Part shown: positions 5,033 through 29,400 of the stretch, piece by piece
Layout of the letters: every line of letters begins with the position of its first letter
How positions within the stretch are numbered: the first letter of the stretch is position 1
Assembly: GCA_903842345.1 (NCBI GenBank)
Contig: CAIMLR010000042.1
Span: 92,857-156,856 of the forward strand
From: an uncultured Myxococcales bacterium
GTDB lineage: Bacteria > Myxococcota_A > UBA9042
DNA length: 64,000 bases
Direction: 5' to 3'
The notes under the pieces: generated by a model
The model's input: only the letters and a program-made list of their open reading frames with translations
Told to the model about the DNA's origin: nothing
Databases searched by the model: none
Made by a program: the position numbers and the translations under genes

Positions 5033-5236
5033 CAGGCGGAGGGCTCCAGGGAATCAAGCCCGAGAATTGGGCAGCGGTCAGGAGGCGGGCGGTACGCGCT
5101 CAGGCGCACAAGACAACCGCCAACGTTGGTTGCCGCGGAGGCTGTGAAAGTTCAATTTGGGGTGGCAGGCTCAAGGTGCCCCTGAGGAGTCAGACGGCGG
5201 TGACGAGGCGTTGCACGCCGCGCCGAAGTCTGGCGC

Positions 5237-6637: not shown

Positions 6638-6658
6638 AGGAACTGCAGCGACGCGGCG

Positions 6659-8903: not shown

Positions 8904-8906
8904 GCC

Positions 8907-9395: not shown

Positions 9396-9480
9396 CACGC
9401 GTTGCGGATTGTGACGCGCGGATGAAACCGCTATGCTGCGCGCGGTCGCCGGGGCGGCCATGGCAATTCAAGGGGAAAAT

Positions 9481-11827: not shown

Positions 11828-11890
11828 GAGACGACCAGGTCGCGCTGGCGGCACGTCGATTGTGGACGTGACCGCCGGCGGCGCCGGTTG

Positions 11891-12847
11891 CTACTTCGCC
11901 AACTTGGAAGTCTTCAGGTAGGTCAGCAGCTCGGCATCCGTGCCCAGCAGCACGTGCGTCCGCGTACCCGCGCGGCGACCTGCGCCGAGGATCTGCGGAT
12001 ACGCCTCAAGCGTCGCGAGGAACGCGTACAGCTCCGGATCGGCGTTGTACGCATCGGCGTAAATCTTGGTCGATTCCGCCTCGCCCTGACCGGCGATTTC
12101 GCGCGATTTGCGGTACGCCTCGGAGCGAATCTCCGCCAGCTTGCGCTCCATCGTGCCCTGGATCTCCGCCGCCGCGCCCGCGCCTTCTGACCGATACTGC
12201 TCGGCGACTTTCTGCCGCTCCGCGATCATCCGGCCAAACACGTTCTGCTGCACAGCTTCAATGTAGTTGATGCGCTTGAGGCGCACATCAATGATGTCAA
12301 TACCATACGCCGCCAGCGTCATCTTGCGGGCGCGCTGCAGGATCTCCTTGTGCAGCTCCAGACGGCCTTTGCGCACGACCAGCTCGTCATGCGTCTCCGT
12401 GTCCATGCCCGGCATGTCGACCGCGCGCGTGTCCGGACGCACGGCTTCAATCAGGTTGTTCTCGGAGATCGTCAGCCGCACCGTCGACTCAATGACGTCA
12501 TCCAGCCGCGTCTGCGCGCCTTCCAGATCGCGCACGCTGCGCAGGAATTTCAGCGAATCGACGATCTGCCACCGCGCGGTGCAATCGACCCAGATGAAGC
12601 GCTTGTCCTTGGTCGGCACCTGCGCGCGGTCGCTGTCCCAGCGCAGGAGCTGTTTGCTGAACCGGTGGACCTTGTCCCACGGCGCGATGAACATCAGCCC
12701 CGGCGTGGTGCGGGAGACGCCCATCGGCTCGCCAAATTCGGTGATGACGACCTGCTCGAATTCGTTGACGACGACCAAGCAGTTCGCCGCCAGCCAGAAG
12801 CCAACGATGATGGTGACGAGGGCGATGAGGGCTGCGCGCTGGCTCAT
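11891..12847 (-). CDS. hflC: HflC (SPFH/band-7) protease modulator
   Basis: N-terminal TM segment and an SPFH domain. It forms an adjacent pair with HflK and overlaps it by 4 nt. Confidence 0.85.
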   Translation of the reverse strand: MSQRAALIALVTIIVGFWLAANCLVVVNEFEQVVITEFGEPMGVSRTTPGLMFIAPWDKVHRFSKQLLRWDSDRAQVPTKDKRFIWVDCTARWQIVDSLKFLRSVRDLEGAQTRLDDVIESTVRLTISENNLIEAVRPDTRAVDMPGMDTETHDELVVRKGRLELHKEILQRARKMTLAAYGIDIIDVRLKRINYIEAVQQNVFGRMIAERQKVAEQYRSEGAGAAAEIQGTMERKLAEIRSEAYRKSREIAGQGEAESTKIYADAYNADPELYAFLATLEAYPQILGAGRRAGTRTHVLLGTDAELLTYLKTSKLAK

Positions 12848-13875
12848 GGGGCACCTCGCGCGGGAGCGGCAGGTGTTTCAGGCATCTTCATCGCGCCACT
12901 TCCCAGTTGCAGGACCGGCAGGATGCCGCCTTTTTGACCGCCATCGAGCACGGTAATCTCGTCGATCGCCGGCAGCACTTGCGCCATCGTTTCCAGGTAC
13001 AGCCGCTTGCGCGTCACGTCCGGGGACTTCTTGTACTCAGCCAGGATCTGGCGGAACCGCTCGGAATCGCCCTTGGCGCGGTTGATGCGTTCCCGCCGGG
13101 CGCCTTCCGCGCGCTCCACGGCCTGCAGCGCCTCGCCTTCAGCCTTGGGAATCTCGCGGTTGTAGGCCGCGCGCGCCTCGTTGATCATCTTCTCGCGGTC
13201 CTGTTCCGCGCGGTTGACGTCGTTGAAGCTCGCCTGGACCGGCTCCGGCGGCGTCACGCCGCGCAGTTGCACCGCGATGACCTTGATGCCCGCCTTGTAG
13301 TTGTTGAACGACTTCTGCAGCAGCACCTGCGCTTCCGCCTCGATCTCGTTGCGGCCGACCGTCAGCAGATCATCGACCGTCCGGCTGCCCACCACTTCGC
13401 GCAGCACGGCCTCGGACAGGTCGCGCACCGTGTTGTCCGGCTCGTTGAGGTGAAACCAGTAGTCCGTCGCGCTGGTGATGCGATACTGCACGATCCACTC
13501 GACGTCGGCGATGTTCAGATCGCCCGTTAGCGTCAGCGACTCAACCGCATACGGCGCCTTGATGAATTCCGAGCGCACGTCTGCCTTGGTCGTGCGAAAG
13601 CCGAATTCCTGCTTCAGCACGCGCTCGGTCGGAAACCGCGCGACGGTGTCGAGGCCAAATGGCAGCTTGAAGTGAAAGCCGGGCCCTTCCGTCGTCGTGT
13701 ACCGGCCGAGGCGCAGCACCACGGCATGTTCGTCCGTTCCGACGGTGTAGAACGCAGACCGCGCCGTCGCTACCGCGAGGAGCGCCAGCACAACCCACAA
13801 AACCCAGTGAATCCAGGTTCCCGGTGGACGCCATTGCGGCGGCCGAAAACCAGCATCGCGGTGGGGCATAGCCAT
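12844..13875 (-). CDS. hflK: HflK (SPFH/band-7) protease modulator
   Basis: N-terminal TM segment, an SPFH domain ('AVVLRLGRY…') and a coiled-coil C-terminus. Confidence 0.85.
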   Translation of the reverse strand: MAMPHRDAGFRPPQWRPPGTWIHWVLWVVLALLAVATARSAFYTVGTDEHAVVLRLGRYTTTEGPGFHFKLPFGLDTVARFPTERVLKQEFGFRTTKADVRSEFIKAPYAVESLTLTGDLNIADVEWIVQYRITSATDYWFHLNEPDNTVRDLSEAVLREVVGSRTVDDLLTVGRNEIEAEAQVLLQKSFNNYKAGIKVIAVQLRGVTPPEPVQASFNDVNRAEQDREKMINEARAAYNREIPKAEGEALQAVERAEGARRERINRAKGDSERFRQILAEYKKSPDVTRKRLYLETMAQVLPAIDEITVLDGGQKGGILPVLQLGSGAMKMPETPAAPARGAP

Positions 13876-13893
13876 GTTCGTTCCTTTGCGGCG

Positions 13894-14366
13894 TCAGGAC
13901 GCCAAGTCGTCATCTTTGTCGTTTTCTGGCACGCCGCCAAAAAACCGCCGCAAAACGGCGTCGCTTCCCGGCTTCTCGACCGTCGCCGTCGGTGGCGGCC
14001 CGGCCTCCTCCGCGCGCACTTTGCGGGATTCTTCCAGAATCGCCTCAAAAAGGCTCGGCAAGCGCTGCATCAGGCGGGCCTTCATCGGCTCGCGCAGCGT
14101 GATCTGCTCGATGCCCTCAAACGCTTCCAGGAATAGCACCACGTCCGGCGGCAACACCGTGCGCACCCACTGCCAGCCGACCGGCGCGACGCTGTCCACG
14201 TCCTGCCAGCGCAGCCAATTGCCGACGACGCCACTCTCCGGATCGCGCGCCCGCAGCGTTCCGTCATCGTCGATCTCGGCGACAATGTAAGCCTTGCCGA
14301 CGACGTAGTTGTGGTTGTTGACGTTGCCGATCACGAAGATCTGACTGCCCACCGGCCAAGTACGCA
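13894..14366 (-). CDS. Hypothetical protein (~157 aa) downstream of hflKC
   Basis: The ORF-track entry 13894..14904 has an Arg-rich N-terminal half typical of a non-coding GC frame. A plausible start is 'MRTWPV' at 14366. Confidence 0.35.
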
Positions 14367-14433
14367 TGGCAACTCCATTCTGGCGACGCAGGACCACCCC
14401 CGCGGCGCGTAACATAGCACATCGCTGCGGCCC

Positions 14434-16047
14434 GTGCGGCCGTTGCAACCCGCCCGGGAATCGCGGATGCTGGCGCCCATGCAGATTCACGAGCTCTCCG
14501 CGCTGGACCTGAAAAAACACCTGGAAACGCGGCAGGTGTCCTCCCGGCAGATTGTGCAGGCGCTGATTGACCGGCGCCATGCAGTCGACGCAGAAGTTCG
14601 CGCGTTTGTCGTCGAATACGATGCCGAAGCGCTGCAACGCGCCGATGCCGCCGATGCCGCGCGCGCGCGTGGCGAATCGTGGGGCTTGCTGCATGGCTTG
14701 CCGGTCACGATCAAGGAAAACATCGACATTGCGGGTACCGACTCGACGATGGGCCTCAAGAATCGGCGCAACCAGCCCGCGACGACCGACGCCGTGACGG
14801 TGAAGTTGCTCAAGGATGCGGGCGCGATCGTCATTGGCAAGACCAACGTGCCGCAGCTGCTGCTGGCGCAGGAGTCCGAGAACGCGATCTGGGGCATCAC
14901 GCACAATCCATGGAACACGGGGCGATCGCCGGGCGGATCGTCAGGCGGTGAAGCGGCGGCGCTGGCGGCGGGCATGAGCGTGCTGGGCGTGGGCACGGAC
15001 ATCGGCGGGTCGATCCGCATTCCGGCGCATTTTTGCGGCATCCACGGCCTGAAGCCGACGGTCGATCGCTGGAGCAACCGCGGTTCGGCGACGGGGATCG
15101 CCGGCCAGGAGATGGTGCGCTCGCAGATGGGGCCGATGGCGCGGCATGCCCGCGATCTGGCGCTGCTGATGCAGGCGGTGGATCTGGAGAAGGCGGCGCG
15201 TTTGGATCCGGCGGTGATGCCGTGGCCGATTCCGGACTTTGCCAACGTCGATCTGCGCGGCATGCGCGTGGGCGTGACGCTGGATGACGGCTACCTGACG
15301 CCCAACGCGGGCGTGCAGCGCGCGGTCAAACTGGCGGCGGAGGCGCTCAAGTCTGCGGGCGCGACGATCGTCGATTACCAGCCGCCGGGACCGGACCTGC
15401 TGTTCACGTGGCTGGCGGGCATTTCCTCGGACGGCGGGGCGACGCTGCGCACGATGCTCGCGGGTGAGATGCCGGCGCGGCAGCTGCAGTCGACGGTCAA
15501 GGTCGCGCTGTTGCCCAGTCCAGTGCGCAGCCTGATGGCGGCGATCTTTGACGCGCGGGGCGACAAGCGCATGGCGCGGCTGCTGCGGTCGCTGGGCCAA
15601 AAGCCCGTGTCTGAGCTGTGGGCGCTGACCAACCAGCGGACGCTGCTGCGGCGCGCGGAGCTGGATGCCTGGCAGGCGCAGCAGCTGGATTTGGTGCTTT
15701 GTCCGCCGCACACGATGCCGGCGATGCCGATCGGCACGTCAGGCGACCTGACGATGACGCTTTCCTACGCATTCCGTTACGTGATGCTGAATTTTCCCGC
15801 GGGCGTCGCGCCGGTGACGCGCGTGCTGGAAGGCGAGACCGAGCGCGCGCATCCCGCGGACACGGTGGAGAAGCGCTGCGCGGAGGCGGAGCGCCACAGC
15901 GACGGCATGCCCGTGGGCGTGCAGGTCATTGCGCCGCCGTACCGCGAAGAGCGCGTGCTGGCAGCGATGGCAGCGATTGAAGACGTCGTGTCGCAGGATG
16001 TGCTGTACCCGCGGACGCCGATTGAGCCGCTGGGCAACGGCCGCTAG
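14434..16047 (+). CDS. Amidase-signature family amidase
   Basis: Amidase signature 'GGSSGGEAAALAAGMSVLGVGTDIGGSIRIPA' with a Ser-cisSer-Lys arrangement. Confidence 0.9.
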   Translation: MRPLQPARESRMLAPMQIHELSALDLKKHLETRQVSSRQIVQALIDRRHAVDAEVRAFVVEYDAEALQRADAADAARARGESWGLLHGLPVTIKENIDIAGTDSTMGLKNRRNQPATTDAVTVKLLKDAGAIVIGKTNVPQLLLAQESENAIWGITHNPWNTGRSPGGSSGGEAAALAAGMSVLGVGTDIGGSIRIPAHFCGIHGLKPTVDRWSNRGSATGIAGQEMVRSQMGPMARHARDLALLMQAVDLEKAARLDPAVMPWPIPDFANVDLRGMRVGVTLDDGYLTPNAGVQRAVKLAAEALKSAGATIVDYQPPGPDLLFTWLAGISSDGGATLRTMLAGEMPARQLQSTVKVALLPSPVRSLMAAIFDARGDKRMARLLRSLGQKPVSELWALTNQRTLLRRAELDAWQAQQLDLVLCPPHTMPAMPIGTSGDLTMTLSYAFRYVMLNFPAGVAPVTRVLEGETERAHPADTVEKRCAEAERHSDGMPVGVQVIAPPYREERVLAAMAAIEDVVSQDVLYPRTPIEPLGNGR

Positions 16048-16067
16048 CAACCGCTAGCTTCGTTCGC

Positions 16068-16865
16068 TCAGAATTCGCAGACGCCCAAGCCCGCCGCGGC
16101 GTTGCCGCCGACGTTGACCTTGTCGCAGAGGACGCCGGGCTCGCACAGCCACTGGGCGTCCATGCCGGTGTAGTTGCAGATGACGCGGCAGGTTCCACCG
16201 ACGCACAGCTGGCCCTTCTGGCACTCGTTGTAGAACGTGCAGGCGGCGCCGACCGACTTGCCGCCCGCGGCGCTGCAGAGGTTGGCCTTGCCGTCGGGGA
16301 AGCACTGTTCGGCGGACGGGCAGCCGCCAGAGCCAAACAGCGAGCAGACCGGCGTGCAGGAACCGCAGTCGCCGGGGCAGTCCGTGCAGGTCTCGTCGCT
16401 CTGGCAGGTGCCGTCGCCGCAAATGGAGGGGCAGTCGCCGCAGTCCAGCGGGCAGACCTTGCAGTTCTCCTTGTCGGCCTTGACGCACTTGCCGTCGCCG
16501 CACGTGGTGCTGATGTCGGCGCCAGTGACGCCGTCGGGCAGCGCGGTCGCCGTGCCATCCTCGGCCATATCGGCGGCAGTCGCGTCGTCGGGCAAGGCGG
16601 CGTCGCCGGTTGCGCCATCGGCGAGGAGGACCGCATCGGCCGCGGAGACATCGTCGGCATCCGCGACGGCATCGGCGTCCAGATCGGCGGTGTCAGCGAC
16701 GTCGGGCTTCCATTGACCGAGATCGCTGCCCAAAGTGACTTCAAACTGCGCCGAGATGCCCGGGCCACCATCTGCCGGATCCGCCAACGGCGTCAGACAG
16801 CCAGCAAGCGCGAACAGGATCGCGAGCGGCAGGAGGCGAAGGGGATGCGGGATGGCAGCAATCAC
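16068..16865 (-). CDS. Cys-rich secreted lipoprotein with an acidic Asp/Ala-rich N-terminus
   Basis: Lipobox 'LAGC'. The C-terminal half has about 30 Cys ('CGDGKCVKADKENCKVCPLDCGDCPSICGDGTCQSDETCTDCPGDCGSC'). Confidence 0.65.
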   Translation of the reverse strand: MIAAIPHPLRLLPLAILFALAGCLTPLADPADGGPGISAQFEVTLGSDLGQWKPDVADTADLDADAVADADDVSAADAVLLADGATGDAALPDDATAADMAEDGTATALPDGVTGADISTTCGDGKCVKADKENCKVCPLDCGDCPSICGDGTCQSDETCTDCPGDCGSCTPVCSLFGSGGCPSAEQCFPDGKANLCSAAGGKSVGAACTFYNECQKGQLCVGGTCRVICNYTGMDAQWLCEPGVLCDKVNVGGNAAAGLGVCEF

Positions 16866-16889
16866 GAAAAGAGTGGCTCGTTGCGAAGG

Positions 16890-19358
16890 TCAGTTCTGCG
16901 GCGGCGGCGCGCCGGTCGAAGAATTGTCGAACTTGATGATGTACTGGTCGCACGTCAACTGCGCGCCCGGCTTGGTGTACACGCGGACGTAGTACCACGC
17001 GGAGTTGTCCGAGCAGATGTTCATGCCCGGGTAGCCGCTGGGACCGCAGCCGATGCCGACGTGGTCGTTGATGACGCAGCCCGGATTGACCGCGTTGGCG
17101 GGCACGCAGTTGCATTCGCCCGCGACTTCCGGGACCGGCGACTTGGTGATGGCGCCGAGCGAGTTTGAGTTGCCCTTGTTTTTGGGACCGAACGGCGCGA
17201 CGGGGCCGTAGAACGACGTCGACCAATCGTGCTGCGTTTCCGCGGAGCAGACCTGGTCGCCCGCGCCGCAGCTGCCGCGGTACACATCGAACACGAACAG
17301 GCTGCCGGGATTGAGCACGAACGAGATGCGCACGTCGTATTGGTCGCAGCTGCCGCTGGTGCTGTTGCTGATGTCCGGCGTGTCCGTCGCGTTGAACTTG
17401 TACCAGTCGCCCGATTCGCCCGGCAGGATCTGGCCGGCCTTCTGGATTGTCGCGCTGCCGTCGGGCAGGACGCCGAGGTCAATCGCGTTGCCGCAGAACA
17501 TGCCCATGTTGCCGACGTTCTGCTCCGACTTGCACTCGCAGCCGTCGCTCGGGTCGCCGTTGACGTCGTAGTAGCCTTTCGCGCACGTGCCCACGCCGCA
17601 CGCGCCGTCGATGCACTTGGAGCTGCCGCCGGCGATGGCGCCGCACGTCGCGTCGGCCGAACCGTCGTCGGTCTTGCCGTTGCAGTCGTTATCGACCGCG
17701 TCGCAGATTTCCGATGCGCCGGGGTTGATGCCGCCGTTGCCGTCGTCGCAGTCGCCGGGCTGGCCGGCGGTGTTGGACTTGGTCGCCGCGCACAGGCACA
17801 AGCCCGTCGTCGTCACGCCGTACGTGTCGTTGTCCTGATCGACGTAGTAAAGCTTGCAGCCGATGGCGCCCTGCTCGTCGGTCTTGTCGTTGCAGTTGTT
17901 GTCCACGCCGTCGCAGACTTCGTCCACGCCGGGGTGAATCTTGCCGCCGGGGCCGGGCGTGTCGTCGCAGTCAGCGGCCTGGAGAATCCATTCCGAGGTC
18001 TGCTTGGACTTGCACAAACACGCAGAATCGTTGGGATTGCCAAAGCCATCGCCGTCGAGATCGTGGTAAAAGACGGTGCAGCCCTTGGAGCCGGATTCGT
18101 CCGTCTGGCTGTTGCAGTTGTTGTCGATGTTGTCGCAGATTTCCACGCCGCCCGGGTGGATCGACGCGTTGAAATCGTTGCAGTCGCCACCGTTGTTGCT
18201 GTAGCCCGCGCCGGGGTTGTTGCACAGGCAGTTCTCCGTGCTGGGGACGCCGGTGCCGTAGCCGTCGATGTCGTTGTCCTGGTACCAGTTCGTGCAGCCG
18301 CCGGCGCCGGGCTCGTCGGTCTTGCCGTTGCAGTCGTTGTCGATGCCGTCGCCGCACACTTCCACGGACGGCGCGGGCGCGTCGCACAGGGAGAGCGCGG
18401 TCAGGTTGGTCGACGCGTTGAAGACGCACTGGCGCTTGGACACGCACTGGCCGGCGGTGCTGGTCTTGCTGCAAATCGTCGACTTGCCCTGGACCGCCCA
18501 TTGGTCCTGGCACGAACACTCGCCGCTGTCGGGCACGCACTGCTTGACCGGCTTGCCGTTGTCGGAAAGTTTGAGCTCCTGACACGTGAAGCCCGTCTTG
18601 CAGGTCTCCGTCGGGTTGCCCTTGGCGTCCTTGCCCGGCGTGCACGCCGTCATGCAGAACGAGCCGTCGATGAAGCCGTGCTGGATCGTCTTGCTCGGAT
18701 CGCTCGGATCAGGCTCGGTCGTGCTGCGGTCAAACGGGACGCAGTAGTTGCCGGTCGTGCCGTTGGTCTGGCATTCCTTGTGCTCAGCGCACGGCATGCA
18801 CAGCGTCGGGTAGGCGGGAACGCAGATGTACTGCAGGTCGGTGCCGGAGCCGCCCTGGACGCACTTCCAGTCGGTCGGGCAGTTCTCCGTGCAGACCTGC
18901 GTGCAGACTTTGCCCTGCGCGTCGTCGATGCAATAGCCGCTGTCGCAGTCGCCGTTGTTGGCGCACGGGCAGCCGAATTGGCCGGCGAGCTTGCAGATGC
19001 CGGTGTCGGTCGTCGCGTCGGCGTCGGTCGTGCCGGTGCTGTCGTCGGCGTCATTGACGATCGCGTCCGTTGCGCCGTTGTCGGATTCCGTGTCCGCGTC
19101 GCTCTTGGTCGTGTCGGTGCCCTTCACGTCGCCGTTTTTCAGGCAGTACGCGTGGATGGTCTTGTCCGTCGAACCCGAGCAATCGCTGTCGTCGCAGTCC
19201 GTGCTGCCGTCGCCGTCGTTGTCGATCTTGTCGGAGCAGAGCGCCAGCGTGTCTTCCGTCGGCGTCGGCGTCGGCGTCGAGGAACAGGCGGCTGCGAGCA
19301 GCAACACCGCGGTCAGCAGCGCGGACGCCAAGCGGGTGGTGCTAAGTGGTTGATTCAT
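16890..19358 (-). CDS. Large secreted protein with multiple MopE-like 'putative metal-binding' cysteine repeats
   Basis: Signal peptide present. At least five repeats of 'C(D/G)xxDNDC(D/N)GxTDE…Y(Y/F)xDxDxDGYG', for example 'VCDGVDNNCNDKTDEQGAIGCKLYYVDQDNDTYG'. The N-terminus is acidic (D/T/S-rich). Confidence 0.8.
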   Translation of the reverse strand: MNQPLSTTRLASALLTAVLLLAAACSSTPTPTPTEDTLALCSDKIDNDGDGSTDCDDSDCSGSTDKTIHAYCLKNGDVKGTDTTKSDADTESDNGATDAIVNDADDSTGTTDADATTDTGICKLAGQFGCPCANNGDCDSGYCIDDAQGKVCTQVCTENCPTDWKCVQGGSGTDLQYICVPAYPTLCMPCAEHKECQTNGTTGNYCVPFDRSTTEPDPSDPSKTIQHGFIDGSFCMTACTPGKDAKGNPTETCKTGFTCQELKLSDNGKPVKQCVPDSGECSCQDQWAVQGKSTICSKTSTAGQCVSKRQCVFNASTNLTALSLCDAPAPSVEVCGDGIDNDCNGKTDEPGAGGCTNWYQDNDIDGYGTGVPSTENCLCNNPGAGYSNNGGDCNDFNASIHPGGVEICDNIDNNCNSQTDESGSKGCTVFYHDLDGDGFGNPNDSACLCKSKQTSEWILQAADCDDTPGPGGKIHPGVDEVCDGVDNNCNDKTDEQGAIGCKLYYVDQDNDTYGVTTTGLCLCAATKSNTAGQPGDCDDGNGGINPGASEICDAVDNDCNGKTDDGSADATCGAIAGGSSKCIDGACGVGTCAKGYYDVNGDPSDGCECKSEQNVGNMGMFCGNAIDLGVLPDGSATIQKAGQILPGESGDWYKFNATDTPDISNSTSGSCDQYDVRISFVLNPGSLFVFDVYRGSCGAGDQVCSAETQHDWSTSFYGPVAPFGPKNKGNSNSLGAITKSPVPEVAGECNCVPANAVNPGCVINDHVGIGCGPSGYPGMNICSDNSAWYYVRVYTKPGAQLTCDQYIIKFDNSSTGAPPPQN

Positions 19359-19488
19359 CTCGTGCCGCTCCCATTCATCCGTGCGCCGCGTCTGACCGCA
19401 AAGTCCAACGCGCGACCTACCCCGTCCAAAACTACCACATCCCGCGCTGGCCGCGAATTGTTCGCCACAACCGGGGCGCAGCGCGCGA

Positions 19489-22400
19489 TCAGTTGATCTG
19501 CGCGTCGATCGCGGTGTAGCCGCCAGCCCGCACCATGTCTTTCAGCGTCAGCTGCATCTTCAGTCCGGTGCCCAAGCCCGGAATCAGGCTGCCGAGGTCA
19601 ATCGCCGGCAGCGGCACAACGATGTTGTCCAGTCCCGGAATGCCCTTGGCCAGCTGCGCGTCGATCTGCGTCTTGAGGATGTCCTCAAACGCGCCCTTCG
19701 CGTCCGCGAAGTCCTTGGTGATGTCGATAATCTCCATCATCAGGTTGAGCTTGGTGGCGTCGATCTTCACCGACAGCTCCTGCGCACCCGTCGTCGCGTT
19801 CTTGGCCATCGCGAGGTGCGCGGGCATGTCGGCATTCAGGAAGATGCCGATCGACAGCGGCTGGTCGCCGAGCTTCAGGTTCGCCTTCAGGTACACGTCG
19901 CCCGCCTGCACGCGCAGGTCCATGGGCGTCGGCTGCGCGCACGACTCGACGATCGGCGCGAGGAACAGGTCGACGTCAAACGTCGCGCCATCCAGCGAGA
20001 AGCCGCCGATCGAAGGCGCGCCCGCACCCGCCAAGCCGAGGCTCGCCGCGGTCAGCCCGTCCATCTTGAACGCGCCGCCGTACCAAATCGCCTGCAGCGC
20101 CTGGTTGATGATGTCGTCGTGCAGCGCGAGCTGCATGCGCTGCTTGTCGTCGATCACGAACTCGTCCTTGGCCTGACCCGGGCAGCCGACCTGCCGACCA
20201 ATCGAGCCGAGGTTGACGTGCGCCATCCCCTTGGGCGCCGACAGCTCCGCATCCAGCTTCACGAGGATGCCTTGCGGCGAAAACGTCAGCGTCGTCAGCC
20301 AACTGTTCAGTGTCAGCGTCACCGCGGGCATGCCCGGGATCAGCGCCGGCAGCGGCACGGCCTGGTTGATGGCGAACGTGTTGAGAATACCCAGCAGCAG
20401 CGGCGGAATCTGGTCGTTGAGCAGCTGCGTGATGGTGCCCTCCAGCGTGTTGATGTAGCTGCCGATGATCGCATTGGTGATGAAGTCGAAGAGGCCAAGC
20501 AGGCCGTTCAGGTGCAGCTTGAAGTTCTTGAGGTCGACCTTGGTGGAGATGACCTTGACCGTCGGGCCACCCGCAGGCGTCACGGCGACACCGAGCTGCG
20601 TCGCGATCTCGATCTGGCTCATCGTGATGTTGCCGGAGACCTTGATGGTGACGCTGATGGGACCGATCGACTGCTTGGCCTTGACCGCGATGTCGGCGTA
20701 GAAGTCATTGATCCAGATGTGCATTTTCATGCCGCCGTCGACCGGCTCCAGGGAAATTGTCGGCTTCTTGATCGAGAGGTTGGTGATCTTCACCTCGATC
20801 GCGCCTTGATTCAGGTTCGGCGGCAACAGCGCGTTCAGGTCCATGCCAGCCAGCGCCATCTCAATGATTGTCGCGAGATCATTGGGATTGTTGTAGTCGT
20901 GGACGCCGTCGTCGATGAAGTCCTTGCCGAGGAAGACCTGGATGCCGTCCTTGACGGGCGCGTCCTTGGGATGCGCGCCATCGGTCGGGTAGTACTGACC
21001 GGAGTAGTAGTAGCCGCGCGTCGCCTTGGACACCTGGCCGCCCAGGTCGGTCACCTCCACCTTCGCGGTATTCAGGCCGTGCTTGGCCGGCACTTGCGAC
21101 GCCCAGTTGGTCAGGCCCGTGTCCGGATCCGCGGAGCCCAGCACCGGCTTCTTCTTGGCCGCGTCGTCCCAGTTCGGCGTCAGCACCAGGTTGGCCAGAC
21201 CTGACGTGCCATCCGCCGCCGTTCCCGTCACTTGCACGGACGGCTTGCCGGTAATCGTGTCGCCCCAGTTCGGATAGTCGATCGTCAGCAGCGGCGGCGT
21301 GCCGTCCACGATGATCTGCACGTCCTTGGCGATGTCCGGCGCCTGATCGACCTGCAAATGCACGTTGTACTTGCCGTCGACGTTGAACTGCACCGTCTTG
21401 GGATCCTTGACTTTGTAGCCCTTGGCCGGATCCGTCACGGCCAGCGTCACGGTCGCGGATGGAATGATGTTGTCGTACGCATCCTTGACGACGCTGAGGA
21501 ACTGCACTTTTTCGGCATCCGCGTAGACGACCTTGGCCGGCACGGTCTGCACCTGCAGCAGCGCGGGCGGCCCCGGATCGACGAGCAGCGACGCCGGATG
21601 CAGCTGGTAGGCGTTCCAGTCGCCCGTTTCCGGCACGCAGGCGACCTTGTGGGCGCCGGCTTTCGTCGACGTGACGTAGAGGCCCGTGAGCTTGATGTCT
21701 TTGTCGCCGGAGAAGTCGATGGAGAACGGAAAATCCGGGATCGGATTGCCAAAAGCATCGTTGGCGACGCACGTCACCGAGCTCGCCGCGCCGGCTTCCA
21801 GCTCCGGCGGATCGAGAATCGCAAACAGGTGCACCGGCACGTCCGCATGGACATGCAGCGGCGCGGGCGTCTGATCGGCGAGGCCATCGACGATGCACGC
21901 GATCTGGTAGTCGCCAGCCTTCTTGAGCTGCGTCGTGAACGCCTTGGGCTGCGGCGCGTCGACGGGCGACACTTTCACGGAGAAGCCGTCAAGGACCTCA
22001 TTGCCGTACTTGTCCGCAGCCGTGCACGTCACCGCAACCGGCGTATTGGCGACGACGTCCGTGGGCGCGGGCGTCCCGGGCGCGCTGCCCGCGGGCGGCT
22101 GCAACTGCGTGTCGAGCGTCACCGCGAGGCCAGCGAGGACGTCCAAATCGGCAGGCGTCGGATCGACAAGCTTGTACGCCGGCAGTTGGCAAGCCACCTG
22201 ATACAGGCCGACCTTGGCCAGCGTCACGTGCACATCCTGCACGGCGACCGGCTGCCCGGGGCCGCCAGTAATCGTCACCGTCGCGGCTGACGGGAGCGGC
22301 ACTTCGGCGCCATAGCCCTGGTTCGCGTCGTCCGCGACAACCGGCTTGAACGTGCGGCACTTCACGGCAAAAGGGATCCCCGCGCGGGCGTCGCCGATGA

Positions 22401-22590
22401 TTTCCGTTTCCAGTTTGAGCGTCGTCGGGTCAACCGTGCCGTCGCCATTGCCGCCATTGCCGCCATTGATGCTGCCGGAACCCGCGTCGGGCGACGGATC
22501 GCTGCACGCGGACAGGCCCAAGGCGCTGACAGTGAAGAACCACGCGGCCACAGATGCCAGCGAATTCAATCGGCCAAACCGTCCGGACAT
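19489..22590 (-). CDS. 1,033-aa secreted lipoprotein. It has N-terminal Ig-like beta domains and a C-terminal tandem BPI/LBP/CETP-like (TULIP) lipid-binding fold, which is inferred.
   Basis: Lipobox 'ALGLSAC'. The N-terminal half has repeated roughly 100-aa Cys-pair segments ('…YQVACQL…', '…YQIACIV…', '…HKVACVP…'). The C-terminal roughly 430 aa are Cys-poor and their sequence pattern is collinear with both halves of mammalian BPI (details in findings). The ORF-track start at 22710 is an upstream extension; the start used is ATG 22590. Confidence 0.7.
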   Translation of the reverse strand: MSGRFGRLNSLASVAAWFFTVSALGLSACSDPSPDAGSGSINGGNGGNGDGTVDPTTLKLETEIIGDARAGIPFAVKCRTFKPVVADDANQGYGAEVPLPSAATVTITGGPGQPVAVQDVHVTLAKVGLYQVACQLPAYKLVDPTPADLDVLAGLAVTLDTQLQPPAGSAPGTPAPTDVVANTPVAVTCTAADKYGNEVLDGFSVKVSPVDAPQPKAFTTQLKKAGDYQIACIVDGLADQTPAPLHVHADVPVHLFAILDPPELEAGAASSVTCVANDAFGNPIPDFPFSIDFSGDKDIKLTGLYVTSTKAGAHKVACVPETGDWNAYQLHPASLLVDPGPPALLQVQTVPAKVVYADAEKVQFLSVVKDAYDNIIPSATVTLAVTDPAKGYKVKDPKTVQFNVDGKYNVHLQVDQAPDIAKDVQIIVDGTPPLLTIDYPNWGDTITGKPSVQVTGTAADGTSGLANLVLTPNWDDAAKKKPVLGSADPDTGLTNWASQVPAKHGLNTAKVEVTDLGGQVSKATRGYYYSGQYYPTDGAHPKDAPVKDGIQVFLGKDFIDDGVHDYNNPNDLATIIEMALAGMDLNALLPPNLNQGAIEVKITNLSIKKPTISLEPVDGGMKMHIWINDFYADIAVKAKQSIGPISVTIKVSGNITMSQIEIATQLGVAVTPAGGPTVKVISTKVDLKNFKLHLNGLLGLFDFITNAIIGSYINTLEGTITQLLNDQIPPLLLGILNTFAINQAVPLPALIPGMPAVTLTLNSWLTTLTFSPQGILVKLDAELSAPKGMAHVNLGSIGRQVGCPGQAKDEFVIDDKQRMQLALHDDIINQALQAIWYGGAFKMDGLTAASLGLAGAGAPSIGGFSLDGATFDVDLFLAPIVESCAQPTPMDLRVQAGDVYLKANLKLGDQPLSIGIFLNADMPAHLAMAKNATTGAQELSVKIDATKLNLMMEIIDITKDFADAKGAFEDILKTQIDAQLAKGIPGLDNIVVPLPAIDLGSLIPGLGTGLKMQLTLKDMVRAGGYTAIDAQIN

Positions 22591-22759
22591 TGCGGGCCTC
22601 GTGTTCGTGCAGGAAGCGTTGCCCGCGCCGGCCCGTCGTGTCGCACCCACAACACAACGCCACGCGCAGACTTCCACTTGCAGCGTAACGCCCATGGCCG
22701 CGCAACGCAACGACTAGTTTTTCAGCAACGATTTCAAAATGCTACACACAACGCGGCGG

Positions 22760-23950
22760 CTACTTGCTGTAGACCTTTGGCGTGCCGGTCAGCGCGCGCG
22801 CCTTGGCGAAGTGCTCGGTCCCATCGGCCACGTCGGTCTCAAACGTCGCGGCGCGCGCGTTGAGATCGGCCAGGTCAGACGCCAGGTCGATCGCCTTGAG
22901 CGGCACCGTCGCGCCCGTGCTGCTTTCCATGACAAACGGATGCAGGGACAGCCGGCCGTAGCGGTCCGGCTTCACCGCGGTGAAAATCAGGTACGTCGCG
23001 CCTGTCTGCTTGCCCAGCTTCCCCGCCGGAATGCGGCACTTGTCTGAGGCGAACGCGCCCGCTTTCGCGCAATCTTCCATCGCGTCGATGCCGAATTCGA
23101 CTTCCTTGCGCGGCGCCTTCTCCTTCTTCACTTCGACGAGCTTGGCCGTCACCGTCATTTCCTTGTTCTTGATCTTCACGGCCGTGGCCCACGGCTGCCA
23201 GTTGTTGCCGCGCACTTGCACGTAGTGCGTCCCCGGCGGCACCGGCGTCGACTTGCCCGGCAGCGCGCCGATCTTCACGCCGTCGACGAACACTTCCGCG
23301 CCCTCGCCCGCGCCTTCCACGGCGATGGCAAAGCGCTTGCCGTTCTCCAGCCGCTCATGGACGCTGTCAAACGCGTCGAGCAACACCTTTTCCTGCTTGC
23401 GGCGATCGATCACGAGCGTCGGTTGGATCGTCACGCCCGCTTCAAACAACCGCGTCGCTTCGGCCAGACCGCCGCCCGTGACGTACGCCGTCAGGCCAGC
23501 GCGCGCATACGCATCGGCCAACTTGGAAAAATCCACGAGTTCCGCCGACGACCGCTCATACGCGGCGATCGCGTCGCGGAACTTGGCCAGCGCTTCCTTG
23601 GGCTTGCCGTCCGCGGCCAGATCCGTGCCTTCCTGCCGCCACATGTCGGCTTCGTCGATGTGCCGCGACTGCGGCGTCGACTTGACCGGCGCGGTCTTGT
23701 CCTTGGGCAGCGCCGGCTTCTCCGCGCGATCCTTGTCCGTCAGCAGGTCCAGGCGGCTCGACGAGGCGAGCGCGTCAGACAGCGATTTCTGGATGCGTTT
23801 TTCGTAGATCGCCCGCACCTCGCCGACGTAAATCGCCGGCACGAGCATCACTTTGGGCTTGCTCGCGTCGGCGTTCTGCGGCTCAGCAGCGGCAGCCAGC
23901 GCCGGCCAAGCGAGCACACAGGCCAGCCAAAGGTTCGATCGGATTGTCAT
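22760..23950 (-). CDS. Periplasmic PEGA-domain protein
   Basis: Signal peptide 'LWLACVLAWPALAAAA'. PEGA-like segment 'GAEVFVDGVKIGALPGKSTPVPPGTHYVQV'. Confidence 0.6.
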   Translation of the reverse strand: MTIRSNLWLACVLAWPALAAAAEPQNADASKPKVMLVPAIYVGEVRAIYEKRIQKSLSDALASSSRLDLLTDKDRAEKPALPKDKTAPVKSTPQSRHIDEADMWRQEGTDLAADGKPKEALAKFRDAIAAYERSSAELVDFSKLADAYARAGLTAYVTGGGLAEATRLFEAGVTIQPTLVIDRRKQEKVLLDAFDSVHERLENGKRFAIAVEGAGEGAEVFVDGVKIGALPGKSTPVPPGTHYVQVRGNNWQPWATAVKIKNKEMTVTAKLVEVKKEKAPRKEVEFGIDAMEDCAKAGAFASDKCRIPAGKLGKQTGATYLIFTAVKPDRYGRLSLHPFVMESSTGATVPLKAIDLASDLADLNARAATFETDVADGTEHFAKARALTGTPKVYSK

Positions 23951-24065
23951 TTCTCGCCTCGTTGGGGGTTGGAGCCCGGCACGCGTCCGGCATGAAGCGC
24001 CTCGGACGTTAGCCAGAACGCGCGATGTGTGCAAACGCTTCAGGCAATCCGGCCGCCGCGACGCG

Positions 24066-24809
24066 TCACCAGCTCGCCGTCCGCCCGCCGTCGACGGTCA
24101 GGAAGCTGCCGGTCACAAATCGGCTGCACTGGCTCAAATACACCACGGTTTCAGCGATCGCCCGGCTGCCGGCCCCGGGGTCGGCGGCCATCAACTGCCC
24201 TTGCGGCACGATGTCCAGCAGGCGCTGCCACACGGATTCAGGCAGATCGTCCGGCCGCAGCACGGCGCCGGGCACAATCGCGTTCACCGTGACGTCAGGC
24301 GCCAGCTCAGCGGCCAAACCGCGCACGGCGGCATGCAGCGCGGCCTTGGCCATCGAGTGCGCCAAATAGCCGTGGAACGGAATTTGCGCCGCCAAATCGC
24401 CAAGTATGACGATGCGGCCATCCCCGGACGCCGAGAGGAACGGGTGGGCCGCCAGCGCCAGCGCGACCGGCGCCCGGGCATTTTGAGCGAACGCCAGGTC
24501 GAGTTGCGCCGTGTCCAACGCGGCGATCGGCGTCAAGTCGTAGCTGGCCGCCGCGAGCACCAGCAGCGAGAGGCCGCCCAGGTGCTCCGCCGCAGCCGCA
24601 GCCAGTCGCGGCAGGGCAGCGCTATCGGTCAATTCAGCCTGCAGGGCGATCGCCCGGCGACCCAGCGCGTGGGCGGCGGCCACGACTTCTTCGGCGGCAT
24701 GCGGGTCGCGGCGATACTGGATCGCGACGTCAAAGCCCGCCTCGGCCAGCGCCAGCGCAATCGCCCGGCCAAGCCGTTTGTGTCCCGCGGTAATCAGCGC
24801 CTTCTTCAC
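24066..24809 (-). CDS. Short-chain dehydrogenase/reductase (SDR) family oxidoreductase
   Basis: Rossmann fold 'ALITAGHKRLGRAIALALAEAGFDVAI'. The YxxxK active site is in the expected place. Confidence 0.8.
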   Translation of the reverse strand: MKKALITAGHKRLGRAIALALAEAGFDVAIQYRRDPHAAEEVVAAAHALGRRAIALQAELTDSAALPRLAAAAAEHLGGLSLLVLAAASYDLTPIAALDTAQLDLAFAQNARAPVALALAAHPFLSASGDGRIVILGDLAAQIPFHGYLAHSMAKAALHAAVRGLAAELAPDVTVNAIVPGAVLRPDDLPESVWQRLLDIVPQGQLMAADPGAGSRAIAETVVYLSQCSRFVTGSFLTVDGGRTASW

Positions 24810-25660
24810 GGGGCCTCCCTCAAGAAATCGCCCACGTCAGCGACGAATCGGCTTGGTTCTTCTTCCTGCGGACAGTGGCCGCTGGCATCGTACACAAGCA
24901 GGCGCGCTTGTGGCACGCGGCGCTCCACGTGGCGGATGATGTGGCGCGGGACAAGCCGGTCGTGGCGCCCCCAAATCAGCAGCGTGGGCGCCTGCACGCG
25001 CGGCAGCAACGGCTCCAGGGCTTGCAGGTCCTTGCGAAACGTCCTGGCGATGCGCAGCGTTGCGACGATTCCGCCCGGGGAACGCAGCGGCGCCAGGAAA
25101 TGCGCCATGTAGTGGTCGTCGATCGGCAGGTGCTTGTACGCGCCGTGCGTCAGGCCGAGCTTGAGGATCAGCGCGAAGCCCGGCAGCGCCCACAGCGGCG
25201 CCAGCGCTTCATGCTGCGTCTCCGCCAGCAACGCCGCCGGGAACATGCCGTGGGCCGCGGGACCGACGAGGATGAGCTTCTGCACGCGATCCGGGTGCGC
25301 CGCAGCCAACCAAAGCGCAAGCGCGCCGCCCATCGAACTTCCGCAGACGTGCGCGGACGGCAGCTCCAGCCGCTCGAGCAGTTCGACGAGCCGCGCCACT
25401 TGCGCCGGATAGCGGTAGTCGACGCCCGCCGGCTTGTCTGACCAGCCGATGCCCGGCAGGCACACGGCGATGACGTCAAACCGCTGACAGAGCTGCGGCA
25501 GCACAAAGCGCCAAGCCCACGACGATTGGGCAAAGCCGTGGATCAGCAGCAGCGGCGGTCCCGCGTGCGGACGCGGCCGGACAAAGTGCACGCGCGCGCC
25601 GGAGAACGACGTCAGCGCCAGCCATTGGCCAGCCGGATGCCAGGAGTGCGTGGTGTCCAT
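24806..25660 (-). CDS. Alpha/beta-fold hydrolase
   Basis: 'LLLIHGF' oxyanion motif and 'GSSMGG' nucleophile elbow. The likely start 'MDTTHSW' is at 25660. Confidence 0.8.
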   Translation of the reverse strand: MDTTHSWHPAGQWLALTSFSGARVHFVRPRPHAGPPLLLIHGFAQSSWAWRFVLPQLCQRFDVIAVCLPGIGWSDKPAGVDYRYPAQVARLVELLERLELPSAHVCGSSMGGALALWLAAAHPDRVQKLILVGPAAHGMFPAALLAETQHEALAPLWALPGFALILKLGLTHGAYKHLPIDDHYMAHFLAPLRSPGGIVATLRIARTFRKDLQALEPLLPRVQAPTLLIWGRHDRLVPRHIIRHVERRVPQARLLVYDASGHCPQEEEPSRFVADVGDFLREAP

Positions 25661-26349
25661 CACGGCGCCAGATCGCTGTTGAGCGCCGGCAGCGTGACGC
25701 CAAACGTGCCCTCGACGTCGACCGTGTTCAGCGCGGACTTGCACGCGGCTGCGACGGCGGTGGCGTCCTTGCAATCGTCATTGGCGCCGAGGAATTGCTG
25801 CAAGTGGCCGGCGAAACGGCCCGTGACGAGCCCGCCCGGCGTCGCGCTCCACTGCTTGACGTTGATGTCGCCGGCCAAGCCGGGACACGTCGAACGGTAG
25901 CGGATGTTGCCGTAGGAGAAGTCGAGGTAGGGCGGCGTGCAGCTGAACGGATAGTCGGCGGCTTTGGGTACGAACGGCGGGAAGCCCGGCGCGTTGACGA
26001 GGTTGCCGAGCACGAAGTTGAGGTCGAGCGGGTCCTTGAACGCGCCCAGCTGCCACGTGTCGTGGATCGCCAGCGAAACGGCCGGCGGCTGCATGTGCGT
26101 GTCGCCAAAAACGACCGTGCTCGAGGTGCCGGTCAGGTCGCGCTGCACGGTGAACGTGCGACCGTCGAACTTCTGGCCGTGGAACGTGAACTTGATGCAG
26201 TAGCCCTGCTTCCAGTTCTCGCCGCAGTCGACGCCCGCGCTGGTGTCGTTCGCGACGGCGGCATCCTCCACAGCCGCCGTTTCCGCCGGGGCGGCTGTGC
26301 TGCCGCAGGCCGCGACGCAGAAGCCCAGGATCAGGATGAAAGCGCGCAT
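25660..26349 (-). CDS. Secreted lipoprotein, hypothetical
   Basis: Lipobox 'VAACGS' after ATG at 26349. The upstream extension in the ORF track is rejected. Confidence 0.5.
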
Positions 26350-26491
26350 TCTGGCTCTCCAACGGTGCGGCGCGAACCAGCCGCAGCGACGATCTTGGTC
26401 GCATGCCGACCCACACGCAAGCACGCCGGCTCGCTTGTGCCAATGGCCGGAAGACTGCAAACTGCTGAAGTTTGTCGCCGAGGCGCCCCAG

Positions 26492-29400
26492 ATGTCCCAC
26501 CCGTTCCGCATCCTTGTGCCCCTGCTGCTGCTGATTTCCAGCGCTTGCGGCGAAATTCAGATCGTGCCGCTGGACACCGCGCCAGAGGACGCGCTGGCGG
26601 ATACGGGCGATGCGGTGGCGCTCCCGCTGTCCGTGACAATCGAGTCGCCGCACAACGGCGCTTCGGTCAACGTCGGCGAGACGATTCATTTCTCCGCGCT
26701 GGTGACCGGCGGGACGGTGGCCTATGACCTGCTGACCGCGACGTGGACGACTGCGGACAAGAAGGTGTTGGCTACTGGGCCACTGGACGCCGCGGGGCGC
26801 TCCGCGTTTGACAAGGCGGACCTGCCCGCCGGGCCGCAGTCGCTCCATGTGGAAGTGACCGACGGCAACGGCGCGCATGCCGGCCGCGACCTTGGGCTGC
26901 TGATCAACACGCCGCCGACCGCGCCGTCGGTGAGCATCAAGCCGGAGAAGCCGACGACGCTGGACGACCTCGTGCCGGTGCTGATCAAGCCGCCGACGGA
27001 CATCGACCGCGCGCCGGACAAGCTGCACGTGCGTTTTGACTGGCACAAGGCGGGCGAAACGACGGTGCATCCCGGCGGCGCGAACGGCGAACTGATGGCG
27101 GGGACGCACAAGCGCGGCGAGACGTGGATTGTGACCGCAGTCGCCAATGACGGCACGGGCGACAGTCCCGGCGCGACGGCGCAGGTGGTGATTGGCGATG
27201 CGCCGCCCAACGTGCCGGTGCTGAAGATCACGCCGGCGAATGCGGATTTGCTGAGCGACGTGACGTGCGAGCTGGTGACGCCCGCCAGCGACGTCGACGG
27301 CGATGCGGTCACGGTGGCGTGGGGCTGGCGCGTCGGCGCGTACGTGAACCCGGGCGTGACGACGCAGACCGTCAACATCGACAAGCTGGCGTCGGACGCC
27401 AAGGGCACGTCGCTGCTGGCGGGCGCGCAGGTCTACTGCACCGCGCTCGCGTCCGACGACCAGGTGAGCGCGCCGCTGGCGACGAGTCCCACGCTGACGG
27501 TGCAGGCTTTTGACGTCTGCAAGTCCAAGCTCGACCCGTGCGACAAGAAGGCCACGTGCGTCAACTCCAGCACGCTCGAGCCGACGTGCACGTGCAACAG
27601 CGGCTTCACCGGCGACGGCTATTTCTGCCTGGACATCGACGAATGCGCGTCCGGCTACTGCAGCGTCAACGCCACCTGCAACAACACGATCGGCGGCTTT
27701 CAGTGCACCTGCAAGGACGGCTACACCGGCAACGGCGTGACCTGTACCGACGTCGACGAGTGCCAAGCCACGCCCGCACCGTGCGGCGTCAACGGCGCAT
27801 GCACAAACAAGGACGGCAGCTACCTCTGCACCTGCCAACCCGGCTATTCCGGCGACGGGGTGACGTGCAAGGACGTCGACGAGTGCCAAATCGTCCCGGA
27901 AGTGTGCGACGCCAACGCGGCGTGCAAGAACAGCATCGGCAGCCACACCTGCACGTGCGACAAGGGCTTCCTCGGCGACGGCAGCTTCTGCGTGGACATC
28001 GACGAATGCCTGGACGGCACCACCGGGTGCTCGCCGGACTCAAACTGCACCAACAAGCCGGGCGGCTTCTACTGCCAGTGCAAACCCGGCTACAAGGGCG
28101 ACGGCAAGATCTGCGTGCAACAGGACGAATGCCAGAACGGCGACGCGATCTGCTCCCCCGACGCGCTGTGCACCGACACGCCGGGCAGCTACACGTGCAC
28201 GTGCAAGACCGGCTTCACCGGCGACGGCAAGGACTGCACGGACATCGACGAGTGCGCCACGGGCGCGTTGACCTGCGGTGCGCATGCGGCGTGCAAGAAC
28301 ACGGTCCCGGGTGCGCAGTGCGTGTGCCAGACGGGCTATTTCATGGACGCGACCGGCGCGTGCGTGAACATCAACGAGTGCGCTGCCGCCGTGTACCCGT
28401 GCGACGTCAACGCGTCGTGCGCCGACACGGACGGCAGTTACACCTGCACGTGCAATGGCCCGATCTACTCGGGCTCGGGCAAGTACTGCAGCCAGAACGA
28501 CCTGTGCAAAACGACGACGTGCGCCAACAACGCCACGTGCGCGATGGTCGGCGCCGACCCCATCTGCACGTGCGATTCCGGCTACAGCGGCTTTGGCAAC
28601 ATCGGCTGCACGGAGGTCGACGAGTGCGCGCTGGGGATCGCGACCTGCTCAGGCAGCGCGACGTGCACCAACACGCCGGGCAGCTACACCTGCGCGTGCA
28701 ACCCAGGATTCACGGGGGACGGATTCACGTGCGTGGACGTCAACGAGTGCGCCACGACGGCGAGCCCGTGCGCAGTCGACGCCACCTGCAAGAACACGCC
28801 GGGCAGCTTCACGTGCAACTGCAAGCCGGGCTATTCGGGCTATGGCACCGCGTGCACGGACATCGACGAATGCGCCGCCACCGTCCCGCCATGCAGCGCC
28901 AGCGCGACGTGCAGCAACACACTGGGCAGCTTCCAGTGCACCTGCGACGCCGGCTTCGCGGGCGACGGCGTGACGTGCACGGACATCAACGAGTGCGTCC
29001 TGGGCACCGCGGGATGCGCCCCCGACGCGACGTGCAGCAACACGCCGGGCGGCTTCCAGTGCGCCTGCAACGCCGGGTTCACCGGCGACGGCAAGACCTG
29101 CGCGGACATCAACGAATGCACAAACGGCGTCGCCAACTGCAGCCCCAACGCCGCGTGCAACAACACGCCCGGCAGCTTCAACTGCGCCTGCAAATCCGGC
29201 TTCAGCGGCGACGGCAAGACGTGCACGGACATTGACGAGTGCCCGGCCATCGACTGGTCGTGGGACTTCAACAGCATTGGCGTCAGCGGCTGGACGCTGG
29301 ACCCGCCGAACCTGTACGCGCCGAGCAATCCGCAGTCATCGGGCGTGCCGCCCAGCGTCGCCTGGCAGCTGTGGAACGGCGTGCTCTACTACGGCAATCC

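Follow-up and report, generated by a model that had tools for sequence, protein, structure and literature searches.

We analyzed a 64,000-nucleotide (nt) stretch of DNA from an uncultured freshwater Myxococcales bacterium (contig CAIMLR010000042.1; hereafter the window) and found that one of its minus-strand genes, here called the TULIP gene, encodes a predicted lipoprotein that ends in a BPI-like double-TULIP module. The module comprises residues ~535–1033 (~500 residues). By sequence comparison, its resemblance to BPI is real and far beyond chance, and a full two-barrel BPI-like fold is confidently predicted for it by structure modeling. The protein belongs to a large, uncharacterized family that is restricted to Myxococcota and keeps the same architecture throughout.

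A BPI-like double-TULIP module

The N-terminal half of the module is recognized directly by a Pfam model. PF01273 (LBP_BPI_CETP, N-terminal) matches residues 588–737 (35.0 bits, E = 1.5e-8; gathering score, 28.8), and it matches 25 of the 48 members of an alignment of full-length relatives at E ≤ 0.01, with some members also matching JHBP or Grp7_allergen. A profile built from seven relatives, when compared with all PDB sequences, placed LBP (4m4d, E = 0.0026) and BPI (1bp1, E = 0.0054) at the top; for a 62-sequence profile, the corresponding values were E = 3e-10 and E = 6e-6. Using hhalign, the family alignment matched mature human BPI alone (a query that agrees with the human BPI database record at 100% identity) with a probability of 92.7%, and an alignment of 17 vertebrate BPIs with a probability of 97.1% (E = 5e-11, 268 columns). 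The hhalign match starts at the first strand, where KDGIQVFLGKDF pairs with NPGVVVRISQKGL, spans the N-terminal barrel in full, crosses the linker, and reaches helix A′ of the C-terminal barrel. The segments IAVKAKQSIGPISVTIKVSGN and LHDDIINQALQAIWYGGAFKMDGLT each align to BPI in both HMMER and hhalign, in the same register as in two alignments made by hand in an earlier note on this DNA. Within the C-terminal half, only helix A′ aligns co-linearly with BPI, below significance. The N-terminal barrel is a member of the BPI/LBP/CETP group by Pfam score and the C-terminal barrel by fold only.

A first AlphaFold model, of residues 523–1033 from 7 sequences, was of moderate quality (predicted local distance difference test [pLDDT] 71.9; predicted template-modeling score [pTM] 0.69), and a Foldseek search with it returned full-length BPI, LBP, and CETP at E = 1e-17 to 1e-18 with template-modeling (TM) scores of up to 0.62. 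A second, template-free AlphaFold2 model, of residues 420–1033 from 62 sequences, reached a pLDDT of 88.5 and a pTM of 0.85, and Foldseek agrees on BPI, LBP, and CETP. The order of elements in this second model is BPI-like: strand −1, helix A, a long wrapped sheet, helix B, central-sheet strands, a 33-residue linker, helix A′, a sheet, helix B′, and closing strands. The predicted fold has a central sheet and two barrels, each with a wrapped sheet and two helices, A and the long B.

From the sequence alone, the earlier note had proposed a secreted lipoprotein with a C-terminal tandem BPI/LBP/CETP (TULIP) fold and had suggested structure prediction followed by Foldseek as a check. Its proposal is borne out by the PF01273 match, the LBP and BPI matches at the top of the PDB search, the 97% hhalign probability, and the model, and the suggested check returned a BPI/LBP/CETP-like two-barrel fold; neither of the two outcomes that the note had named as refuting its proposal occurred. 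Its module length of ~430 residues was too short.

Membrane anchor, stalk, and β-sandwich

The TULIP gene starts at an ATG at position 22590 and ends with a stop codon at 19489–19491; its longest possible open reading frame (ORF) would begin at a TTG at 22710. We prefer the ATG because a GAGG lies upstream of it (22597–22600, 7–10 nt 5′ of the ATG) and because translation from it yields a proper lipoprotein signal, MSGRFGRLNSLASVAAWFFTVSALGLSAC, with Cys29 as the lipidation residue. Both Met1 and Cys29 are near-invariant columns (at least 90%) in the 48-member alignment, and translation gives the 1033 amino acids (aa) that the earlier note had reported. Residues 26–29 (LSAC) follow a hydrophobic stretch and fit the lipobox pattern [LVI][ASTVI][GAS]C, so that export through a lipoprotein signal peptide and acylation of the cysteine are predicted. 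Cysteine occupies the Cys29 column in 45/48 family members, and the +2 residue is Gly in 26 of them and Ser in 12. Under the rule known from E. coli, whose transfer to this organism is uncertain, Ser at +2 argues against inner-membrane retention.

The whole stalk of ~400 residues comprises about four Ig-like domains preceded by a flexible linker. Three of these domains carry pairs of cysteines (78/134, 189/232, and 274/318), and the fourth has a weak Big_1 match in Pfam (residues 357–419, E = 1.9e-4). Searched against PDB sequences, the family profile picks up the Ig-domain array of 4e9l, an intimin/FdeC-type protein (E = 3.6e-9); Big_1 and Big_7 each match 14/48 family members. The fusion to N-terminal Ig-like domains noted earlier is supported by both the Big_1 and the 4e9l matches.

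The β-sandwich that directly precedes the TULIP module is matched by Glucodextran_B in 34/48 relatives and is kept even in the shortest full-length ones (the 674-aa P0005-8). The high pTM of the model suggests that it is fixed relative to the barrel. The distance from anchor to sandwich is usually ~360–480 residues in the family, with stalk lengths ranging from 35 to 856.

Family-specific motif, cysteines, and charge

The most conserved stretch of the family is a motif, DDGxHD...P(N/D)DLAT, located between strand −1 and helix A. Here it reads DDGVHDYNNPNDLATI (window 20866–20913, residues 560–575), and it has no counterpart in BPI in the hhalign comparison. This motif could be a metal- or partner-binding site.

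The module is poor in cysteines, as the earlier note had observed for the C-terminal part, and contains only C803 (20182–20184) and C884 (19939–19941). Each is conserved in at least 90% of relatives, and the two probably form a disulfide that staples the inter-domain linker to the C-terminal barrel. BPI itself has a disulfide between Cys135 and Cys175 in its N-terminal domain; residues 535–785 of the present protein contain no cysteine.

We also compared charge. LPS (lipopolysaccharide) capture and killing by BPI depend on its strongly cationic N-terminal domain, and we found no cationic N-terminal tip here, as judged from bulk composition rather than a surface map: the isoelectric point (pI) is 4.8 for the whole module and 4.9 for its N-terminal barrel, and it lies below 5.7 in 57/61 family modules.

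A large family in Myxococcota

A word-indexed search returned only 8 relatives, making the protein seem nearly unique, and a word-indexed profile search with a 7-sequence alignment found fewer relatives than the single-sequence search. The size of the family emerged from an exhaustive HMMER search: 500 cluster representatives had E ≤ 0.001, at least 331 of them reached E ≤ 1e-10, and 83 reached E ≤ 1e-30. Most representatives are ~1000 aa long and carry the module C-terminally, and a lipobox is present in almost every complete one. The earlier note had called BPI-like two-domain proteins rare in bacteria, which was overstated given the 331 representatives, DUF4403, and the TipA-type double TULIPs.

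We scanned for loci with a 14-sequence alignment as the query, taking one genome per species and keeping 80 loci. Almost all come from metagenome-assembled genomes (MAGs) labeled Myxococcota, Myxococcales, or "Deltaproteobacteria" from lakes, groundwater, sludge, and the sea; one is an Oligoflexales MAG, and there are no cultured strains among the 80. Locus L002, from the Myxococcales MAG MJ-time_bin-8340, shares 99% identity with the window. The number of TULIP copies per genome varies from 1 to 3, with two or three in several genomes.

We note that five records (L007, L011, L012, L021, and L024) that carry the PEGA, TULIP, and MopE-like cluster are titled Klebsiella pneumoniae or "uncultured Enterobacteriaceae"; these bins are probably taxonomically mislabeled. 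A further relative, P0009 (203 aa, on a 2274-bp ENA contig), begins like a family-2 glycosyltransferase yet matches one quarter of the TULIP module at 98% identity; it is probably a chimera or a wrongly called ORF from a metagenome.

Gene neighborhood

The features of the TULIP gene and its neighbors are collected in Table 1.

Table 1. Features of the TULIP gene and neighboring genes (window positions).
Feature	Positions	Strand	Basis or remark
Complete TULIP gene, 1033-aa lipoprotein (Ig stalk, β-sandwich, C-terminal double TULIP)	19489..22590	-	ORF and translation; GAGG before ATG
Predicted signal peptide and lipobox, residues 1–29; L-S-A-C (26–29), Cys29, +2 = Ser	22504..22590	-	Sequence
Acidic, Gly/Ser/Asn-rich flexible linker, residues 30–62	22405..22503	-	Sequence, composition, pI 4.05
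Stalk of ~4 Ig-like domains, residues 63–427	21310..22404	-	Big_1 match, family profile, Cys positions
Conserved β-sandwich, Glucodextran_B / Fn3-like, residues 428–534, directly before the TULIP module	20989..21309	-	
N-terminal TULIP barrel and central-sheet share, residues 535–785; strand −1, DDGxHD...PNDLAT, helix A 572–581, helix B 702–737	20236..20988	-	PF01273, hhalign, model
Inter-domain linker, residues 786–818, conserved Cys803	20137..20235	-	Coil in model
C-terminal TULIP barrel, residues 819–1033; helix A′ 825–837, helix B′ 959–981, conserved Cys884	19492..20136	-	
Downstream gene, 822-aa Cys-rich lipoprotein with four MopE-type metal-binding motifs	16890..19358	-	PF11617 E = 1.3e-26; lipobox LLAAAC
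Third core gene, 265-aa Cys-rich lipoprotein, GTG start, CGDGxC repeats	16068..16865	-	Lipobox LALAGC; aligns with orthologues
Upstream gene, secreted PEGA-domain protein, 396 aa from likely Met start	22760..23950	-	PEGA E = 3e-8; signal peptide
SDR (short-chain dehydrogenase/reductase) gene, upstream of PEGA gene	24066-24809	-	4-bp overlap with hydrolase gene
α/β-hydrolase gene, upstream of PEGA gene	24806-25774	-	4-bp overlap with SDR gene
Small lipoprotein of no assigned function	25660-26349	-	Followed by α/β-hydrolase and SDR

The earlier note had described a same-strand array of genes for the PEGA protein, the TULIP protein, the MopE-like protein, and a Cys-rich lipoprotein. Order and strand hold, and the fourth gene is the one at 16068–16865. 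The ORF at 15926–16771 (minus strand, 281 aa), which had been taken for the Cys-rich lipoprotein, does not align with orthologues and was rejected as a wrong-frame artifact of high G+C.

Conservation of the neighbors was assessed by tblastn and ORF clustering across the 80 loci. The MopE-like gene lies directly 3′ of the TULIP gene on the same strand in ~25 loci, down to a TULIP-module identity of ~33%; the small Cys-rich lipoprotein gene comes next in 14 loci, and a PEGA gene precedes the TULIP gene in 14–15. Outside this core, one side is occupied by an amidase, a GrpE/chaperonin-like pair (identified by inspection only), or other genes, and the other side by hydrolase/SDR or unrelated genes. 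As these outer flanks differ between sub-groups, the TULIP/MopE-like pair has survived rearrangements around it, and the linkage of the TULIP gene to the MopE-motif lipoprotein gene is tight and rearrangement-resistant. In a distant "Proteobacteria" MAG (L043, ~2724–17500), tandem TULIP lipoprotein genes (1177 and 955 aa) have a MopE-like gene on each side. The MopE-like partner gained nothing further from Pfam at E ≤ 1.

One paralogue clade (L050, L057, L058, L060, and L062) has a FadL/TodX/OMPP1-family gene directly upstream of the TULIP gene, divergent and on the minus strand (e.g., L057:5665–7017). FadL/TodX/OMPP1 is a family of outer-membrane channels for hydrophobic compounds, and its presence beside the TULIP gene provides a second, independent hint of hydrophobic cargo. 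In other distant paralogue clades, the neighbors are mostly housekeeping genes (helicases, and a chaperonin-like gene by inspection only), suggesting that, the FadL/TodX-type gene excepted, these contexts reflect plain synteny. The relative P0005 has an unrelated gene context.

The group of small lipoprotein, hydrolase, and SDR genes is kept in part of the orthologous loci. We considered the α/β-hydrolase and SDR as lipid-processing partners and rejected them, since the hydrolase lacks a signal peptide and is apparently cytoplasmic, and since only some of the orthologous loci retain both genes.

Two further large genes lie on the opposite strand of the window. At 26243–30466 (plus strand), a few kb from the TULIP gene, a gene conserved in the closest MAGs encodes a 1407-aa protein made up almost entirely of eukaryote-type EGF modules (14 EGF_3, 13 EGF_CA, and 11 cEGF stretches). 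At 48240–51602 (plus strand), a second large protein (1120 aa) carries MopE-type metal-binding motifs.

Comparison with known TULIP systems

The protein shares with BPI, LBP, CETP, and PLTP (PF01273 and PF02886; structures 1BP1/1EWF, 4M4D, and 2OBD) predicted secretion, two TULIP barrels with a central sheet, and a detectably homologous N-terminal barrel. In contrast to these proteins, it is bacterial, predicted to be N-terminally lipidated, and equipped with an Ig-domain stalk and a β-sandwich. Compared to BPI, it is acidic rather than cationic and lacks the BPI disulfide, whereas the Cys803/Cys884 pair and the DDGxHD...PDDLAT motif are specific to this family and PF02886 is blind to its C-terminal barrel.

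Among bacterial proteins, the nearest precedents are TipA and DUF4403. TipA (Bd2538), from Bdellovibrio bacteriovorus, is secreted, has a BPI-like double TULIP that holds lipids and binds bilayers, and works with a β-sandwich adaptor, TipB, encoded by a separate downstream gene (bioRxiv 10.1101/2025.09.09.675085). The same preprint reports many double TULIPs with fused domains, including β-rich ones, in the AlphaFold database. Both systems pair a double TULIP with a β-sandwich, which in the present family may act in a TipB-like way. However, TipA is not described there as a lipoprotein, has no stalk, and dimerizes via a hairpin/helix insert; here, the β-sandwich is fused N-terminally, and 3′ of the TULIP gene we found no gene for a small TipB-like β-sandwich adaptor but the gene for the 822-aa MopE-motif lipoprotein. 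TipA is annotated as DUF2785, which this protein does not match in Pfam. No TipA entries were among the matches listed from the PDB copies searched, and TipA is set apart here by its description.

DUF4403 (PF14356) has been predicted to be a full-length BPI homologue in bacteria (Levine 2019, PMC6791001). Like the present family, it is a full BPI-like double TULIP of diderm bacteria, with mostly outer-membrane lipoproteins as members. DUF4403 gave no Pfam match at E ≤ 10 in this protein; its linker of 20–25 residues keeps it close to the membrane, compared to the ~400-residue stalk here, and its link to BPI needed HHsearch, whereas this family matches the eukaryotic Pfam model directly.

The clostridial proteins OrfX1, OrfX2, OrfX3, and P47 also have a TULIP fold and were retrieved by Foldseek at E = 1e-7 to 1e-11, but their global superposition is poor (TM 0.24–0.34), and they come from monoderms, are associated with toxins, and have neither a lipid anchor nor an Ig stalk. 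The extended synaptotagmins and ERMES (SMP-type TULIPs) share the combination of a membrane-anchored TULIP transfer module with accessory β-sandwich domains.

In the literature searched, we came across no study of a TULIP family from Myxococcota, nor any description of a protein that unites a lipid anchor, an Ig stalk, a fixed sandwich, and an acidic module with a conserved MopE-like partner.

Proposed function and alternatives

With slightly better than even confidence, we propose that the protein is a lipid-anchored envelope protein that carries a double TULIP on a ~400-residue stalk for the tethered transfer of lipid or hydrophobic cargo. By analogy with other TULIP proteins, the two barrels would enclose hydrophobic pockets that take up lipid or another hydrophobic cargo. 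To our knowledge, every characterized TULIP protein holds hydrophobic ligands in its barrels, and since TipA, too, contains lipids, the module most likely binds lipid or similar cargo. Judging by the Ser or Gly at +2, the protein may be sorted to the outer membrane, and the stalk could carry the module ~20–30 nm from its anchoring membrane. Cargo would then be picked up or delivered at another surface, which may be prey, a sibling cell, a vesicle, or a particle if the module is surface-exposed, or the inner membrane if it is periplasmic. The module probably acts jointly with the co-conserved MopE-like and Cys-rich lipoproteins. Its cargo is more likely to be a phospholipid, neutral lipid, or other hydrophobic molecule, as for CETP, PLTP, and Takeout, than electrostatically captured LPS. 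The earlier note had suggested an extracellular role in binding and transferring lipid or LPS; the acidic module weakens the LPS part, and the lipid-transfer part is one that we infer.

Several observations weigh against tethered transfer. Of the two Pfam models that the earlier note had proposed as a check, PF01273 scored above its gathering threshold, but PF02886, the C-terminal model, gave no match at E ≤ 10 in this protein and none at E ≤ 0.01 among the 48 members. Gene linkage inside the orthologous clade is partly inherited synteny, and the genes of the array are separated by gaps of 130–170 bp. A promoter and terminator scan of 15800–24300 found no promoter-like site and terminator-like sites on the wrong strand only. 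The MopE-like profile returned nothing useful from PDB sequences, with only a marginal match to MopE. In addition, the organism is uncultured.

The same architecture could instead serve as a periplasmic shuttle, anchored in the inner leaflet of the outer membrane, with the stalked module ferrying phospholipid or lipoprotein-like cargo between the membranes for envelope upkeep. Such a role suits a lipoprotein with Ser or Gly at +2; the typical ~400-residue stalk would roughly fit a periplasm of ~20 nm (width from Levine 2019, PMC6791001), and a periplasm-facing orientation has been predicted for the TULIP lipoproteins DUF4403 and YceB. We nevertheless consider it unlikely, as the family is patchy and confined to uncultured Myxococcota MAGs with no cultured strain among the loci kept, and its copy number of 1–3 and its variable stalk (35–856 residues) are unlike those of a core envelope-biogenesis factor. 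The Cys-rich, PEGA, and EGF-repeat neighbors are of a matrix or surface type, and this company leans weakly toward a surface orientation. Quite unlikely, in our judgment, is a carrier or sensor of a non-membrane hydrophobic small molecule (carotenoid, sterol, hopanoid, signal lipid, or secondary metabolite), comparable to the single-TULIP Takeout, JHBP, and β-carotene-binding protein. Two family members do match Pfam JHBP, and SDR and α/β-hydrolase genes lie upstream in several orthologous loci, but a double barrel of the BPI/CETP kind is what one typically finds in proteins that carry phospholipid, neutral lipid, and LPS, and the hydrolase, without a signal peptide, is not kept in most loci.

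That BPI and LBP are the nearest relatives by structure and sequence raises the idea of an antibacterial weapon that binds the LPS/lipid A of Gram-negative prey and permeabilizes the outer membrane. TipA destabilizes bilayers, and predators are known from both phyla in which the family occurs, mainly Myxococcota but also, with a single MAG, that of the Oligoflexales. However, the acidity of the N-terminal barrel and of the module as a whole, against the cationic N-terminal domain of BPI, leads us to rank a BPI-style LPS weapon low and a CETP/PLTP/Takeout-like carrier higher; with the protein also tethered by a lipid anchor rather than released, and the Cys135–Cys175 disulfide absent, we hold the weapon to be improbable. 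An artifact of modeling or low complexity, with the protein being an Ig-repeat adhesin, could account for the missing PF02886 match and for the pLDDT of only 71.9 in the 7-sequence model, but independent sequence-only tests and the template-free model at pLDDT 88.5 converge on BPI, LBP, and CETP, and the chance of an artifact is close to negligible.

A bolder version of the tethered-transfer proposal, which we rate as rather unlikely, would make the Myxococcota family, which scores above threshold on a Pfam model built from eukaryotes, the closest prokaryotic sequence relative of eukaryotic BPI/LBP/CETP, and would have the protein form, with the MopE-like and Cys-rich lipoproteins, a previously undescribed surface apparatus that extracts lipids or exchanges them between cells (prey or kin) over tens of nanometers. 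Such kinship would point to an ancient gene transfer, in either direction, between Myxococcota-like bacteria and eukaryotes.

Implications

Lipid movement in bacteria beyond the Lpt, Mla, and AsmA-like systems is little understood, and bacterial TULIPs are acknowledged to be under-studied. It was already known that bacterial TULIPs are widespread, and one bacterial BPI-like double TULIP has just been characterized; what is new here is a large, untouched family with a solid fold call. The locus defines a concrete candidate for the capture or exchange of lipid or hydrophobic cargo at the myxobacterial envelope and offers a natural "tethered BPI" to compare with the soluble TipA/TipB of Bdellovibrio. 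It also provides bacterial sequences near enough to eukaryotic BPI/LBP to probe the origin of that innate-immunity and lipid-transport family.

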